Of a DNA stretch of 64,000 bases, positions 52,322 to 59,242 are shown in pieces; the stretch's first letter is position 1; each line of letters opens with the position of its first letter. The position numbers and the translations under genes are program-made. This DNA is from a virus (lineage: Duplodnaviria; Caudoviricetes), in IMG/VR virus record IMGVR_UViG_3300021387_001157, positions 96,001-160,000 of that record, one strand, 5' to 3'. The notes under the pieces are model-generated. The model was given only the letters and a program-made list of their open reading frames with translations, was not told the DNA's origin and ran no database searches.

Positions 52322-52444
52322 TCGGGAGGGTGGGACTCGAACCCACGACCACGGCTACCCAAAAGCTATTAGAAAAACGTTGCTGTTTGATTCTTTACCA
52401 AGAATCTATCATTTACGTGCTCTAACCAACTGAGCTACCTCCCG
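52322..52444 (-). tRNA. tRNA-Pro(TGG) with a 49-nt insert at 28/29 (52367-52415)
   Basis: CG[insert]GCT-TTTGGGT-AGCCG. Confidence 0.8.
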
Positions 52445-52549
52445 TTCTTAAAAAAAGCAGACCCGCTTACCAACTACTTGACCGAGGGCTGTCTCCCCTT
52501 TCGAGGTGCCTTCGTTGGTGGACTTGAACCACTCCCATATCTGCTATTG

Positions 52550-52624
52550 TGGGACCCCAGGGAGTTGAACCCCAGCCTCCGGATTTTCAGTCCGGCGTAC
52601 AATTACCACCTATACGAGAGTCCC
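52550..52624 (-). tRNA. tRNA-Phe(GAA), second copy
   Basis: Loop CTGAAAA. Confidence 0.85.
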
Positions 52625-52971
52625 AAAAAAACGAGTATATACTTATGAATCCTCGTCATCCTATATACCCCACGACCAAACTAAACGTGTTGACCTGCTC
52701 CATAGTTTACTTAATGGCCTCCAGTATAAGCGAATGTACTCGTTTGTGAAATATGGTGGGACTTGAACCCACGGCCTCCCCCGGCGGGGGGTGCTCTACC
52801 AACTGAGCTACACAATCACTTCCGAATCACATGGAAAATGGTTCTTTATAGTACCAATAACCTTGTTTCCACCAGTTAGGTCAGGAACATACCTCCGCCT
52901 ATTTCTACCAAGACGGCTAATCCTCATCCTTTTATATCGCCCGACGAGGAACGGGCTATCACATGTGAGAG

Positions 52972-53045
52972 TGGACCACGATGGGATTCGAACCCACGAC
53001 CCTCTGACTGCCAGTCAGATGCTCTACCGACTGAGCTACGAGCCC
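52972..53045 (-). tRNA. tRNA-Ala(GGC)
   Basis: G3-U70; loop CTGGCAG; one extra nt in the acceptor 3' strand. Confidence 0.85.
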
Positions 53046-53141
53046 ATGAAAATTGAGTTGTTTAAGGTCTAACTCAAGACTAACGACCGGGGCTGTCATC
53101 GATTCCACCATCCGATTTTATACGACATCGGAAAACGTTAG

Positions 53142-53261
53142 CGGAGAGAGTGGGACTCGAACCCACGACTACGGTCGTGACAGGACATTGAAGAACGTTG
53201 CTGTATGATTCTTTTTCAAGAATACTCTATTTACGTGTTCTACCAACTGAACTACCTCTCC
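53142..53261 (-). tRNA. tRNA-Asp(GTC) with a 47-nt insert at 28/29 (53187-53233)
   Basis: CG[insert]GTC-CTGTCAC-GACCG. Confidence 0.8.
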
Positions 53262-53406
53262 ATTTTGAGTTGTTTTAAGTCCAACCCAAACGACTGGGGC
53301 TTGCCGGTTTGAATCCGACGAGCGGTTCCACCATCCGATTTTATACGACATCGGAAAACGTTAACAAGAATCCATAGAATAGTTCAGTAAAATATAGAAA
53401 AATATT

Positions 53407-53735
53407 CTAATATCTTACATTTTGTTCGAGGTTCATAGAACTTGCTACTGCTTGTTCTCCCACTCGCTTAAATTCGGGTGAACTCAACCCTATTATTCGT
53501 TTTCCTTCTTCTAGTATATTCTTTGCTGCGTTAATATCTCTGTCGTGTACAACACCACATTCAGGACAAAACCCACTCTCTATCAGAGAGTTGTAATAAG
53601 TCATTTTTATAACCACAGCAATAACATGTCTTTGATGAAGGATAAAATCTATCTATAAAGATTACTTTTTTATCATTCCAAGATGCTTTGTATTGAATTA
53701 TTTGTTTTTAACTCACAGAAACTAACATCCAGTGT
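53407..53735 (-). pseudogene. tnpB: IS200/IS605 TnpB C-terminal remnant, frameshifted
   Basis: QIIQYKASWNDKKVIFIDRFYPSSKTCYCCG in one frame, CPECGVVHDRDINAAKNIL in another. Confidence 0.85.
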
Positions 53736-53745
53736 TTTATCTTAG

Positions 53746-53819
53746 TGGACACAGATGGGAATCGAACCCATGACTACCTGTTTGCAAAACAGGAGTTCTA
53801 CCAACTGAACTACTGGCCC
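53746..53819 (-). tRNA. tRNA-Ala(TGC)
   Basis: G3-U70; loop TTTGCAA; one extra nt in the acceptor 3' strand. Confidence 0.85.
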
Positions 53820-53877
53820 ATGAAAATTGAGTTGTTTAAGGTCTAACTCAAGACTAACGACACTAACTTACCAATTG

Positions 53878-53962
53878 TGCCCAAGACAGGACTTGAACCT
53901 GCACTCCCTAAACGGGAACCAGCCCCTCAAGCTGGCGTGTCTACCAATTCCACCACCTGGGC
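53878..53962 (-). tRNA. tRNA-Leu(GAG)
   Basis: Class II body; loop TTGAGGG. Confidence 0.9.
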
Positions 53963-54019
53963 ATTTGTTGTTTTTAATGCTTCTATATATTTTTTAGTTC
54001 ATTTTTTTAGTTCAAATTG

Positions 54020-54090
54020 TTGGAGTAACTGGATTTGAACCAGTACTATATCCTCCAAAGGGACATGTGCTGCCATTACACCATACTCCA
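54020..54090 (-). tRNA. tRNA-Gln(TTG)
   Basis: Loop CTTTGGA; U1-A72. Confidence 0.88.
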
Positions 54091-54114
54091 ATGTCCAATG
54101 TTGTTTTATCTGCA

Positions 54115-56843: not shown

Positions 56844-56915
56844 TAGCGGGGGCTGGATTCGAACCAACGACCTCCGGGTTATGAGCCCGACGAGCTACCA
56901 CTGCTCTACCCCGCT
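56844..56915 (-). tRNA. tRNA-Met(CAT), initiator type
   Basis: Three G-C pairs in the anticodon stem; loop CTCATAA. Confidence 0.9.
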
Positions 56916-56925
56916 ATCTTTTATT

Positions 56926-57480
56926 TTACACAAAGAACAAAATACCACATTCTATCATATCTTCTACTTTACAAAGAAAATCTGTTATATTTTCGTCTTT
57001 TATTTGGTTTATTTTCAAGTTATTACGATTTGCATTTAAGATAATAAACTCTTTCCATTTCTTCATATCTATCATACATCTTTTGATAATATTTGTTGTA
57101 TTCCTTTCAACAAATGTACAATAGACATAATCACATTTTGTGATAATCGACCAACCAAAATTTCCATGAGAAATAATCTCAAACGGAAGATTACCAGTAT
57201 CAAGAGCACGACCATCAGATTTAACCTCTATCTTTTTGTATCGTTCTCTTTCAGATAAAACTATATCCAATTCAGGTAAACTATCACCATATTCATTATC
57301 TATTACAAAATCGATATCAATCAACTGATACTCCTTTATATCTGAAACGTCAAATATCTTTCTGCCAACATTCTGAGGTTTACTTGTAAACCATTCAATA
57401 AAATCTTTCTCACTTATTTTCCCGTCATTCAAGTCTTTCTTGAAATTAGGTTTTCTACTTGTTTTCTCTAAAACGGCCAT
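56926..57480 (-). CDS. Putative PD-(D/E)xK (restriction-like) endonuclease
   Basis: YQLIDIDF...KIEVKSD....TGNLPFE. Confidence 0.6.
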   Translation of the reverse strand: MAVLEKTSRKPNFKKDLNDGKISEKDFIEWFTSKPQNVGRKIFDVSDIKEYQLIDIDFVIDNEYGDSLPELDIVLSERERYKKIEVKSDGRALDTGNLPFEIISHGNFGWSIITKCDYVYCTFVERNTTNIIKRCMIDMKKWKEFIILNANRNNLKINQIKDENITDFLCKVEDMIECGILFFV

Positions 57481-58277
57481 ACGTCAATATCATAATTCGT
57501 AATCACAATTTCACCACCCTTTTTACATTCTTTTCCACCAACATTCGTCATACTGTATACAAAATCAAAACTATAAATGTTGTAATCCTTATACAAATCT
57601 CTTATGTCAGAAGATTCATCGTAACTTATCATAATCTTATTATTTCCAGAGTGATTTTTAACCCATTCAAACAACATATTATGATTAAAGTTTTTATGAA
57701 GTTCTCCCTTATCTCCATATAGTCCGATTTTATTGTTTTCTTTATATGGCGGGTCAAGATAGATAAAGAAACCATCAATATCAATATAATCGTCAAGTTT
57801 AATAAAATCAGTATTCAAAAACGTTGTCCTTTGAATGACACTGGAAATATCCTTAATCTTGTTAATTCCATCAATTGTGAAATTCCGATTGAATGCTTGT
57901 GAAGAATAATTGCTATTCAATCCACTAAATGATGTCTTATTTGATATGAAAAAATGACTTGCTTTATTTCTATCAAGATTCAAGAACTCATTCTTAAATG
58001 TTTCACAGTTAAACTGGTTTTTTATCTCCAGACACTCATCAATAATACTCTGTGGGTTATTTTTAACAGTGTTGTAATAGTTTATTAACTTACAATCAAT
58101 ATCGTTTGCATATATCACTTGTGGATAATACTTCTGTATGATATACAACAAAACACTACCACCACCCGTAAACACTTCAAGATATTTATTGACTTCATTT
58201 GGAAAGAATCTATCCAAAATCTTTGTCATTTTGGACTTTCCACCAGGCCAACGTAAATTAGATTTTACTTTACTCAT
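57468..58277 (-). CDS. dam: DNA adenine methyltransferase (D12/Dam family)
   Basis: LRWPGGKS, EVFTGGGSV, YLDPPY, MISY, EIVITNY. Confidence 0.92.
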   Translation of the reverse strand: MSKVKSNLRWPGGKSKMTKILDRFFPNEVNKYLEVFTGGGSVLLYIIQKYYPQVIYANDIDCKLINYYNTVKNNPQSIIDECLEIKNQFNCETFKNEFLNLDRNKASHFFISNKTSFSGLNSNYSSQAFNRNFTIDGINKIKDISSVIQRTTFLNTDFIKLDDYIDIDGFFIYLDPPYKENNKIGLYGDKGELHKNFNHNMLFEWVKNHSGNNKIMISYDESSDIRDLYKDYNIYSFDFVYSMTNVGGKECKKGGEIVITNYDIDVWPF

Positions 58278-58281
58278 ATAG

Positions 58282-58354
58282 CGGGGATGGTAGGACTCGA
58301 ACCTACGACCCAGTGGTTAACAGCCACTTGCTCTACCTGCTGAGCTACGTCCCC
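58282..58354 (-). tRNA. tRNA-Asn(GTT)
   Basis: Loop CTGTTAA. Confidence 0.9.
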
Positions 58355-58486
58355 AAAAATGATTTTTCTTTACCGTTGAAAACCTAAAACGTAATAGTCT
58401 TTACTCCACACCATCAAGCGACGACTCTTCGGATTACTCAGTAATTTACCTTTATATACTCTGGTCAGTCGTTGACCAACAGCTGC

Positions 58487-58562
58487 TGGCGGTCTATACG
58501 AGATTCGAACTCGTGTCACCGCCGTGACAGGGCGGCATGCTAGGCCTCTACACCAATAGACC
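58487..58562 (-). tRNA. tRNA-Asp(GTC), intact, CCA encoded
   Basis: Loop CTGTCAC. Confidence 0.92.
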
Positions 58563-58589
58563 ATACCTATTTATGTTTAGGAAATTTTA

Positions 58590-58737
58590 CAAGGTTCACT
58601 TTTTTATCTTGTTATCTGAAATATGGTTCGGATTAGATTTTTTTATTGCTGTATGAACCTTTAAATGTATGCAAGAATCTTTTCATGAATGATTCAAAAA
58701 CTCTGAATTTCATAAAATTGTTGCTGTATGATTCTTT
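58590..58737 (-). ncRNA. Two tandem ACAGCAA stem-loop RNAs (58590-58662, 58672-58737)
   Basis: AAGGTTCATACAGCAA...TGAACCTTG and AAGAATCATACAGCAA...GATTCTTG; covarying stems. Confidence 0.7.
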
Positions 58738-58831
58738 ATCTACACGATTTCCTTATTTATTATTTTTCCCTAACAATATAAATATAACAAAAAAATTCAA
58801 GAAAATTCAATTTTTTTGAATTTTTTTTTTG

Positions 58832-58903
58832 AGAAGATGAGCAGAATCGAACTACCATCCCCAGCGTGGCAAACTAGTACACTAACCATTGTGCTACATC
58901 TGC
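58832..58903 (-). tRNA. tRNA-Gly(GCC)
   Basis: Loop TTGCCAC; one acceptor mismatch. Confidence 0.75.
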
Positions 58904-58907
58904 ATTT

Positions 58908-58997
58908 TGGCGGAGAGGGAGGGATTCGAACCCACGGGGGCTGTTACACCCCAACGGTTTTCAAGACCGCCGCCATAAACCACTCGGCCACCTCTCC
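58908..58997 (-). tRNA. tRNA-Ser(TGA), CCA encoded
   Basis: Class II body; loop CTTGAAA. Confidence 0.92.
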
Positions 58998-59124
58998 AAT
59001 TGCCGTTTCTGTCTTTGTTGCAGAAGACTAACGGCTGTGTGGAAACTGTCTCCTGACATTACACTGCAACAACGTATGTCTCTTGAAACGTGATGACAAC
59101 CACAATCCTTCACGATTGATTTTG

Positions 59125-59242
59125 CAGGGTGGGTAGGATTCGAACCTACGTCACGGCTACCAAAAAGCAAAGAAAACGTATTGCTGTAAGATTCTTTCAC
59201 AAGAATCAAAAATACGTGTCCTAACCACTAGACGACCACCCA
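59125..59242 (-). tRNA. tRNA-Gln(TTG) with a 46-nt insert at 28/29 (59169-59214)
   Basis: CG[insert]GCT-TTTTGGT-AGCCG. Confidence 0.8.

Follow-up and report, generated by a model that had tools for sequence, protein, structure and literature searches.

A module-bearing class of tRNA genes in huge gut phages and its possible relation to Ro60-like ring proteins and Y RNAs

The DNA considered here is a stretch of 64,000 nucleotides (nt), hereafter the window, taken from positions 96,001 to 160,000 of the 193,840-bp viral record IMGVR_UViG_3300021387_001157 (Caudoviricetes; named G000 below), which has an estimated completeness of 67% and whose DNA was detected in cattle and sheep gut and rumen metagenomes. 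The window contains every tRNA gene of this record, each on the minus strand (35 calls by ARAGORN, the transfer-messenger RNA, tmRNA, included), and the cluster also holds a permuted tmRNA, a suppressor tRNA(CUA) and a GOLLD-like RNA. Three genes of this cluster, encoding tRNA-Pro, tRNA-Asp and tRNA-Gln, are interrupted within the anticodon stem by one class of short insert. The insert contains an RNA module, here called the handle, that recurs outside tRNAs and in other huge phages, and every phage record found to carry it also encodes a protein with a predicted Ro60 fold, so that the interrupted genes may specify Y-RNA-like chimeras. The three loci are the following.

52322-52444, minus strand: tRNA-Pro(UGG) with handle module; 49-nt insert at 52367-52415, between positions 28 and 29; Rfam tRNA 48 bits, covariance model R1 62.9 bits.
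53142-53261, minus strand: tRNA-Asp(GUC) with handle module; 47-nt insert at 53187-53233, between 28 and 29; Rfam tRNA 44.8 bits, model R1 62.5 bits.
59125-59242, minus strand: tRNA-Gln(UUG) with handle module; 46-nt insert at 59169-59214, between 28 and 29; Rfam tRNA 40.3 bits, model R1 50.4 bits.

These loci had been singled out in an initial annotation, whose coordinates and sequence details all held; the Rfam tRNA model RF00005 covers exactly the three intervals. ARAGORN, which does not allow stem inserts, missed all of them. Read as RNA, each gene is broken after C27-G28, and the insert follows one order: UA with 6-9 variable nt, the hairpin (G/U)AUUCUU-GNNA-AAGAAUC, the word WWACAGCAA, (UA)CGUU and a pyrimidine-rich tail. 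The motif ATTCTT-N5-AGAAT-N3-ACAGCAA was observed three times against 0.12 expected, a count reached in none of 100 shuffles. Excision of the insert in silico restored 5-bp stems and 7-nt loops, as had been claimed: CGGCU/AGCCG with UUUGGGU in Pro, CGGUC/GACCG with CUGUCAC in Asp and CGGCU/AGCCG with UUUUGGU in Gln, each loop having U33 and a purine at 37. The deduced insert-free junctions, marked by the slash, read GAGCACG/GCUUUUGGG, GAACACG/GUCCUGUCA and GGACACG/GCUUUUUGG. In folds of the insert-bearing sequence, the closing helix of the module uses exon bases 26-28 (ACGU:ACGU); in the Gln chimera it is extended to 7 bp (ACGUAUU:AAUACGU), and there the Rfam tRNA model prefers it as a pseudo-anticodon stem.

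Intact genes for the same isoacceptors, also reported at the outset, were called by ARAGORN and have bodies unrelated to those of the interrupted genes.

55054-55127, minus strand: intact tRNA-Pro(UGG).
58487-58562, minus strand: intact tRNA-Asp(GUC).
54019-54090, minus strand: intact tRNA-Gln(UUG).

With these intact copies in place, the chimeras are dispensable for decoding. Both the D arm and the T arm are nearly identical among the three interrupted genes and unlike those of the intact isoacceptors, which argues for a single interrupted ancestor that was duplicated and re-specified rather than for three independent events; judged by this resemblance, the impression of three tRNAs struck at one site probably reflects largely one such ancestor. 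A search for insert-free orthologs returned only unrelated phage tRNAs, from which it can be said that the deduced spliced sequence is a standard tRNA body and nothing more.

The module is an autonomous, permutable handle that is not specific to tRNAs. Its unit consists of a 7-bp helix (GAUUCUU/AAGAAUC), a GNNA cap and then an unpaired AWACAGCAA. Besides the embedded copies, six free-standing copies occur in G000, one at genome position 79280 and the other five within the window.

59333-59399, minus strand: free-standing permuted handle RNA, 67 nt, flanked by the tmRNA and tRNA-Ser; arm AAGGUUC, AUACAGCAAC, a 34-nt variable part, then arm GAACCUU-GUAA.
58667-58740, minus strand: free-standing permuted handle RNA, 74 nt; arms AAGAAUC/GAUUCUU.
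58585-58665, minus strand: free-standing permuted handle RNA, 81 nt; arms AAGGUUC/GAACCUU, which form a 9-bp stem when folded.
55933-56002, minus strand: free-standing permuted handle RNA, 70 nt; the 5' end of tRNA-Thr directly follows the B box GAACCUUGUAAAA.
55719-55849, minus strand: free-standing permuted handle RNA, 131 nt; arms AAGAUUC/GAAUCUU.

On the tRNA strand, the ACAGCAA of free-standing copies always lies within UAAAG-RWUC-AWACAGCAAY (the A box), and a perfectly complementary B box, GAWYCUU-GUAAAA, follows 34-98 nt downstream. The A box follows an RNA gene at a distance of about 10 nt, and the B box precedes the next tRNA by 0-3 nt. These RNAs fold as a terminal stem of 7-9 bp, an unpaired AUACAGCAAC strand and variable hairpins, with a total length of 67-131 nt. 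In the tRNA inserts the same A and B boxes are ordered B-GNNA-A, which amounts to a circular permutation with the tRNA replacing the variable part. A perfect 7-bp partner was found for 29 of 32 distinct copies versus 2.8% at random places, and four arm variants are linked by compensatory changes.

Relatives were collected by an exact-pattern scan of IMG/VR together with covariance model R1, and one metagenome scan was also made; the GenBank phage collection yielded no relatives. Four module-bearing phage records resulted: G000, G001 (185 kb), G002 (363 kb, 96% complete) and G003 (361 kb, 100% complete). Across these four genomes, the A-box pattern occurs 26 times on the tRNA strand, never on the opposite strand and never as its reversed control. 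G001 carries the module in Pro, Asp and Gln tRNAs, as does G000, and also in Leu(CAA) at 31/32 with an enlarged hairpin loop. In G002 the module interrupts Lys(UUU) and Ile(GAU) tRNAs at 28/29 and is also found on the loop side of a long-arm tRNA and in an RNA retaining only the tRNA acceptor stem and T arm, and G003 carries it in one Gln(UUG)-type tRNA at 28/29. The motif is therefore kept among related phages and the insertion position only in part: the fixed 28/29 site put forward initially applies to Pro, Asp, Gln and some relatives but not to the Leu(CAA) gene. In the Ile member, CU at 27-28 pairs with AG at 42-43, so covariation of the anticodon stem extends across the insert. In nine embedded copies the hairpin ATTCTT-GNNA-AAGAAT is unchanged, and ACAGCAA drifts to ACAGCGA or ACGCGA. 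A scan of 185,579 prokaryote species genomes gave 11 single matches, in random taxa and coding sequence; this chance level marks the motif as viral, and a host signal was rejected on that ground.

A candidate protein partner is encoded outside the window. The 520-aa product of G000 positions 41999-43561 (L086:754-2316, minus strand) matches DUF2828 at 85 bits and DUF7788 at 164 bits; DUF2828 (PF11443) was found in all four module-bearing phage records and over the cut-off in none of 14 control genomes. An AlphaFold (AF2) model based on a 32-sequence alignment (A4) reached a predicted local distance difference test score (pLDDT) of 82 and a predicted template-modelling score of 0.82; a single-sequence model with pLDDT 43 was discarded. 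In a Foldseek comparison against the PDB, the top 12 matches were all full-length alignments to Ro60/TROVE structures (E 4e-9 to 6e-6, TM 0.46-0.62), including phage phiLo Ro60, Xenopus and human Ro60 and Deinococcus Rsr, and only vWA domains came thereafter. The same protein had no match to Pfam TROVE, which makes the resemblance one of fold rather than of sequence family. Based on this model, the DUF2828+DUF7788 protein is predicted to adopt the Ro60 fold, a TROVE ring plus a vWA domain. The suggestion that a TROVE-type protein might accompany the inserts was borne out in that 4/4 phage records carry DUF2828, the G000 member of which has this predicted fold.

The DUF2828+DUF7788 family is large: the search retrieved more than 6,000 relatives, many of them on 300-400-kb contigs. 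In addition, the Ro60-like proteins of module-bearing phages share 24-68% identity. A phage SmpB gene (genome 43924-44421) lies just upstream of the Ro60-like gene in G000 and in 4/4 sampled homolog contigs. The tmRNA of this phage, which also has its own SmpB, is a circularly permuted, two-piece molecule (window 59408-59776, minus strand). A permissive scan for the stem plus ACAGCAA within 10 kb around four DUF2828 homologs gave no handles that could be credited, as a reversed-core control scored alike. A literature search found no paper linking DUF2828 to Ro60 or describing an ACAGCAA handle.

The metagenome scan displayed two classes of carriers. The first comprises phage tRNA arrays with a GC content of 0.40-0.48 and embedded copies. 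The second comprises AT-rich viral contigs (GC 0.23-0.33; L050, L052, L057, L063, L068 and L072) with tandem arrays of 7-10 units at a period of 52-54 nt. The array unit reads GRTTCTTG-NN-AAAGAATY-NN-ACAGC-WA followed by about 22 AT-rich nt, all units are on one strand, and two arrays begin 8 nt after a tRNA-Leu(UAA). Arm variants with G.U pairs (GGUUCUU/AAGAAUC and GAUUCUU/AAGAAUU) favour RNA pairing over a DNA palindrome. A duplex-DNA operator, iteron or centromere site, which the palindrome and the arrays might bring to mind, was rejected, because the arms covary at distances up to 98 nt and G.U variants are tolerated.

In 5/5 contigs long enough, an open reading frame of 679-706 aa follows immediately downstream of the array on the same strand. 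The encoded proteins share 56-62% mutual identity and a DxSGS vWA motif, and one of them has an N-terminal DUF2828 match of 29.6 bits; their nearest Atlas clusters are TROVE/vWA_Ro60 and DUF7788/DUF2828 (phage clusters). The same contigs encode Hsp70, an RFC-like clamp loader, AP endonuclease 2 and HA-domain helicases, and one contig related to them is labelled as a giant-virus metagenome-assembled genome in IMG/VR. A tblastn comparison of array contigs with G000 found no common protein at E<=1e-4, and the two are linked solely at the level of Pfam, features and fold. A AAAATTGA-like word stands ahead of three arrays. The array of L002, an 8-bp palindrome with a 2-nt loop and ACAGCAA in one unit only, is a probable relative and was not used as evidence.

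Taken together, we lean towards reading the interrupted genes as unspliced tRNA-handle chimeras that act as Y-RNA-like partners of the phage Ro60-like protein, an interpretation to which we give somewhat more credence than doubt. The handle, with its 7-bp helix, GNNA cap and unpaired AWACAGCAA, would have been placed within the anticodon stem of tRNA bodies that are complete in every other respect. A chimera would then be the free-standing RNA turned inside-out: in the free-standing form the helix joins the RNA ends and encloses a variable insert, and in the chimera the helix is capped and the tRNA becomes the cargo. The likely partner of the handle is the ring protein DUF2828+DUF7788, to which it would bind, giving a particle of the Y-RNA type in which the tRNA body might tether the ring to tRNA-binding factors or serve as their bait. 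Such a particle could act in tRNA surveillance, repair or counter-defence.

Several observations weigh against this interpretation. Every member, once the insert is removed, has a canonical anticodon arm; U33 and a purine at 37 are present in 7/7 loops examined, and the acceptor and discriminator features match the anticodons in spite of the common ancestral body: by the established identity rules of Escherichia coli, C1-G72 and A73 suit Pro, G73 and C38 suit Asp, and U1 and G73 suit Gln. Identity features kept in this way are expected of selection on chargeable tRNAs and are not obviously needed by a pure scaffold, which is the main point that the chimera interpretation leaves unexplained. 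The word ACAGCAA is unlike the known Ro60-binding words GNCGAAG, GGUCCGA and CGAA, and there is no Rfam Y-RNA match. In G000, the Ro60-like gene (42-43.6 kb) has SmpB as its neighbour and lies about 100 kb from the handles of the window (148-155 kb), a further handle being at 79 kb. The array-adjacent proteins resemble the phage DUF2828 family weakly in profile-profile comparison (E 0.035, N-terminal motif only), and the five array contigs represent one lineage, so that their array-gene adjacency counts as one conserved synteny.

The strict preservation of anticodon arms and identity elements keeps alive two models in which a tRNA is the working product. The first of them, which we regard as unlikely and yet as the strongest competitor, holds that the inserts are genuine tRNA introns belonging to a new, protein-dependent class: an endonuclease, with the handle or a protein bound to it as a possible guide, would excise the insert, the two halves would stay paired through the anticodon stem, and the Rnl2-type ligase of the phage would seal the nick in the duplex. 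Exact removal yields canonical tRNAs with matching identity elements and U33/R37 loops, the U28-A42 pair of the Ile member covaries across the insert, and tRNA-Tyr and tRNA-Trp are present in G000 only as insert-bearing genes. A nick at 28/29 in a duplex is also the kind of substrate that T4 Rnl2 prefers, and the phage has a full-length homolog, which bears only on the intron model.

1497-2495, minus strand: full-length T4 Rnl2-type RNA ligase, with RNA_ligase and T4_Rnl2_C domains.

Just outside the window, a CCA-adding enzyme with an HD domain, more ligase-family proteins, a P-loop kinase and metallophosphoesterases are encoded, but RNA-repair gene sets of this kind are common in phages as counter-defence equipment. 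The endonuclease and ligase of archaeal-type protein-spliced introns were not detected, although ATP-dependent ligases, the Rnl2 type among them, are present: profile searches for EndA (PF01974) and RtcB (PF01139), the latter named in the initial annotation as a possible companion, detected their positive controls and found neither in the 194-kb record, which is 67% complete. Inspection of sequences and folds showed no bulge-helix-bulge (3-nt bulge, 4-bp helix, 3-nt bulge). The 5' boundary of the insert falls within the ACGU:ACGU helix (ACGUAUU:AAUACGU in Gln), and the 3' boundary is single-stranded, its distance beyond the helix being 7-10 nt for the three genes of the window and 3 nt for the L005 member. 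With this distance ranging from 3 to 7-10 nt and the insertion site varying as well, a single ruler-like cut is hard to picture. Rfam searches of window positions 48000-64000 at E<=1 matched no ribozyme, no intron family including Intron_gpI and no Y-RNA or YrlA model, and a comparison by hand with hammerhead and hairpin ribozyme cores gave no consistent agreement. Moreover, the module is found where there is nothing to splice, namely in the free-standing RNAs and tandem arrays. Enigmatic short tRNA introns reported in Lak megaphages (10.1101/356790, PMC6784885) lend the intron model a possible precedent.

RNA data were available as assembled Logan contigs only, from three metatranscriptomes and one DNA run, mapped to positions 50300-59900. 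In two RNA contigs of low depth (X7#32 and X16#16), the Gln locus retains its insert and runs on without a break into tRNA-Ser and the tmRNA; these contigs show transcription of the region, and the insert-bearing Gln form could be precursor RNA or DNA carry-over. Among the joints listed, none skips an insert, in assembled contigs from libraries that capture mature tRNAs poorly. A recurrent joint, 52348>52419, was rejected as a splice; it also occurs in the DNA run, and 21 foreign letters separate its two sides, which indicates an origin from the tRNAs of other organisms. Of the two alternatives offered at the outset, the unspliced tRNA-noncoding RNA chimera or protein scaffold is favoured by the autonomy of the handle and its co-occurrence with a protein of predicted Ro60 fold, and the new protein-spliced intron class has gained no positive support.

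In the second model, which appears to us rather improbable, the chimeras would be working, chargeable tRNAs permanently tagged with a Ro60-type handle, so that the ring is carried on Pro, Asp, Gln, Lys, Ile and Leu tRNAs. The tagged tRNAs might serve in bait-and-repair against host anticodon nucleases, together with Rnl2, kinase and CCA enzymes, or else the ring might be the platform of a handle-guided tRNA splicing.

A further possibility, to which we attach little weight, is that the module serves the tRNA and noncoding RNA array as a signal for RNA processing or transcription, such as a cleavage site, promoter or terminator, and that three of its copies fell inside tRNA genes by chance. The motif is strictly strand-specific, the free-standing copies sit exactly between RNA genes at the spacings given above, and an abundant RNA contig (55139-55822) begins 7 nt after ACAGCAAC of the element 55719-55849, that is, after one A box. 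However, arms that covary as much as 98 nt apart speak for an RNA structure and not for a promoter, the tRNA would not survive processing at a site within the anticodon stem, arrays of 7-10 units beside a Ro60-like gene are not predicted by a processing site, and the chance-level occurrence in prokaryotes leaves no host signal to be recognised. That the loci are dead, functionless tRNA genes broken up by a small element of mobile or repeat type is very hard to believe: intact isoacceptors exist and the element is repeated in several contexts, but the chimeras keep their arms, loops and identity elements across phages whose Ro60-like proteins have diverged as far as stated above, their stem pairs covary across the insert, and the target duplications or terminal repeats typical of transposition are lacking.

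Other RNAs of the cluster depart from the standard tRNA form as well. The tRNA-Tyr(GUA) gene (51764-51940, minus strand) has an anticodon-loop insert of about 100 nt and the tRNA-Trp(CCA) gene (50468-50606, minus strand) one of 66 nt; both inserts start with UACAG(A/G)G, similar to the AUACAGCAA word, and the Tyr insert has AUACAGAG at both ends with the complementary CUCUGUAU in between. They may be variant handles in which the anticodon stem is the closing helix. With introns allowed, ARAGORN called tRNA-Lys(UUU) at 49525-49896 (minus strand) with a 298-nt insert and tRNA-Leu(UAA) at 60261-60882 (minus strand) with a 538-nt insert. Group I intron models applied to 48000-64000 gave no match for either large insert, and these loci may be RNAs that retain tRNA ends around big foreign domains. 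In tRNA-Ile(GAU) (51678-51755, minus strand), the 5' acceptor strand GUUGCUG is the complement of the handle word CAGCAAC, possibly by coincidence. The suppressor tRNA with anticodon CUA, which reads UAG, lies at 52130-52207 (minus strand), and the long open reading frames of the window are open under the standard code.

Two RNAs stand out by abundance. The GOLLD-like RNA (56044-56829, minus strand) scored 77.8 bits with Rfam, under the gathering score of 150, and was strongly over-represented in the three metatranscriptomes versus DNA. Adapter read-through in run X18 placed its ends at 56829 and 56044, a length of about 786 nt, with the start 14 nt after tRNA-Met. The second RNA (55139-55822, minus strand) reached a depth of 74-211 in RNA runs versus 13 in DNA and includes tRNA-Ala(UGC) and most of the handle element 55719-55849.

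Ro60 and Y RNAs are conserved from bacteria to humans and their function is poorly understood, the tRNA mimicry of bacterial Y RNAs being an open question. The present analysis assigns a predicted Ro60 fold to the large, unannotated family DUF2828+DUF7788 and places a simple, recognisable RNA handle alongside it. One protein, one 25-nt handle and a natural series of cargo variants (tRNAs, free-standing RNAs and arrays) would offer an experimental entry to the role of Ro60 particles and tRNAs in infection. Some tRNA introns of huge phages may be kept protein handles, which would affect tRNA inventories and arguments from codon usage. Tagged working tRNAs or ring-platform splicing, if either were true, would constitute a function not known for any Ro60 or tRNA.

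Among known systems, group I introns likewise interrupt phage and bacterial tRNA genes. Those introns are at least about 200 nt long, lie in the anticodon loop and are self-splicing, whereas the inserts described here are 46-49 nt long, lie in the stem and match no Rfam intron. Archaeal and eukaryal protein-spliced introns, which depend on a bulge-helix-bulge, EndA/TSEN and RtcB or Trl1 and occupy non-canonical sites in Thermoproteales, are closer in that they too are short anticodon-arm inserts at odd positions whose exact removal restores the tRNA. Here, in contrast, no bulge-helix-bulge, EndA or RtcB was found, and the insert holds a sequence-conserved module that also exists outside tRNAs. 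The 'enigmatic' introns of Lak megaphages (Devoto et al. 2019, PMC6784885; 10.1101/356790) share the setting of huge gut phages and over-long tRNA genes with short, conserved, non-group-I inserts, one of which was itself predicted to be tRNA-like. As compared by description, they differ in being placed at or near the loop by eukaryotic tRNAscan settings, and no mechanism, 28/29 stem module, ACAGCAA or protein partner was described for them.

The closest likeness is to Ro60 and its Y RNAs, for which the comparators were the tRNA-mimicking YrlA RNAs of bacteria and mycobacteriophages (Chen et al. 2014, PMC4201824; RF02553) and Yrl1/Yrl2 of the Thermus phage phiLo (PMC12135203). The Y RNAs of bacteria and phages are tRNA mimics that bind Ro60 through words such as GNCGAAN0-1G in bacteria and CGAA in phiLo, the vertebrate word being GGUCCGA (PMC4201824, PMC12135203). 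Both systems have RNAs of about 65-130 nt with a terminal stem and a conserved, putatively protein-binding word beside a variable module, a tRNA-like part, several RNA copies per genome and a genome-encoded ring of Ro60 fold with a vWA domain. They differ in the protein, which here is DUF2828+DUF7788 without a Pfam TROVE match; in the word, AWACAGCAA beside a 7-bp helix that no Rfam Y-RNA model covers; in gene order, the Ro60-like gene of G000 not being adjacent to the RNAs; and in layout, as the RNA ends form a normal acceptor stem of a complete tRNA with a genuine anticodon loop, the handle being a capped side arm of the anticodon stem. The best-supported comparison is therefore that the chimeras and the protein of predicted Ro60 fold are a variation on the Ro60/Y-RNA theme with another protein family, another RNA word and an inverted layout, and, if the handle reading is true, the chimeras would represent an undescribed, inside-out kind of Y RNA.

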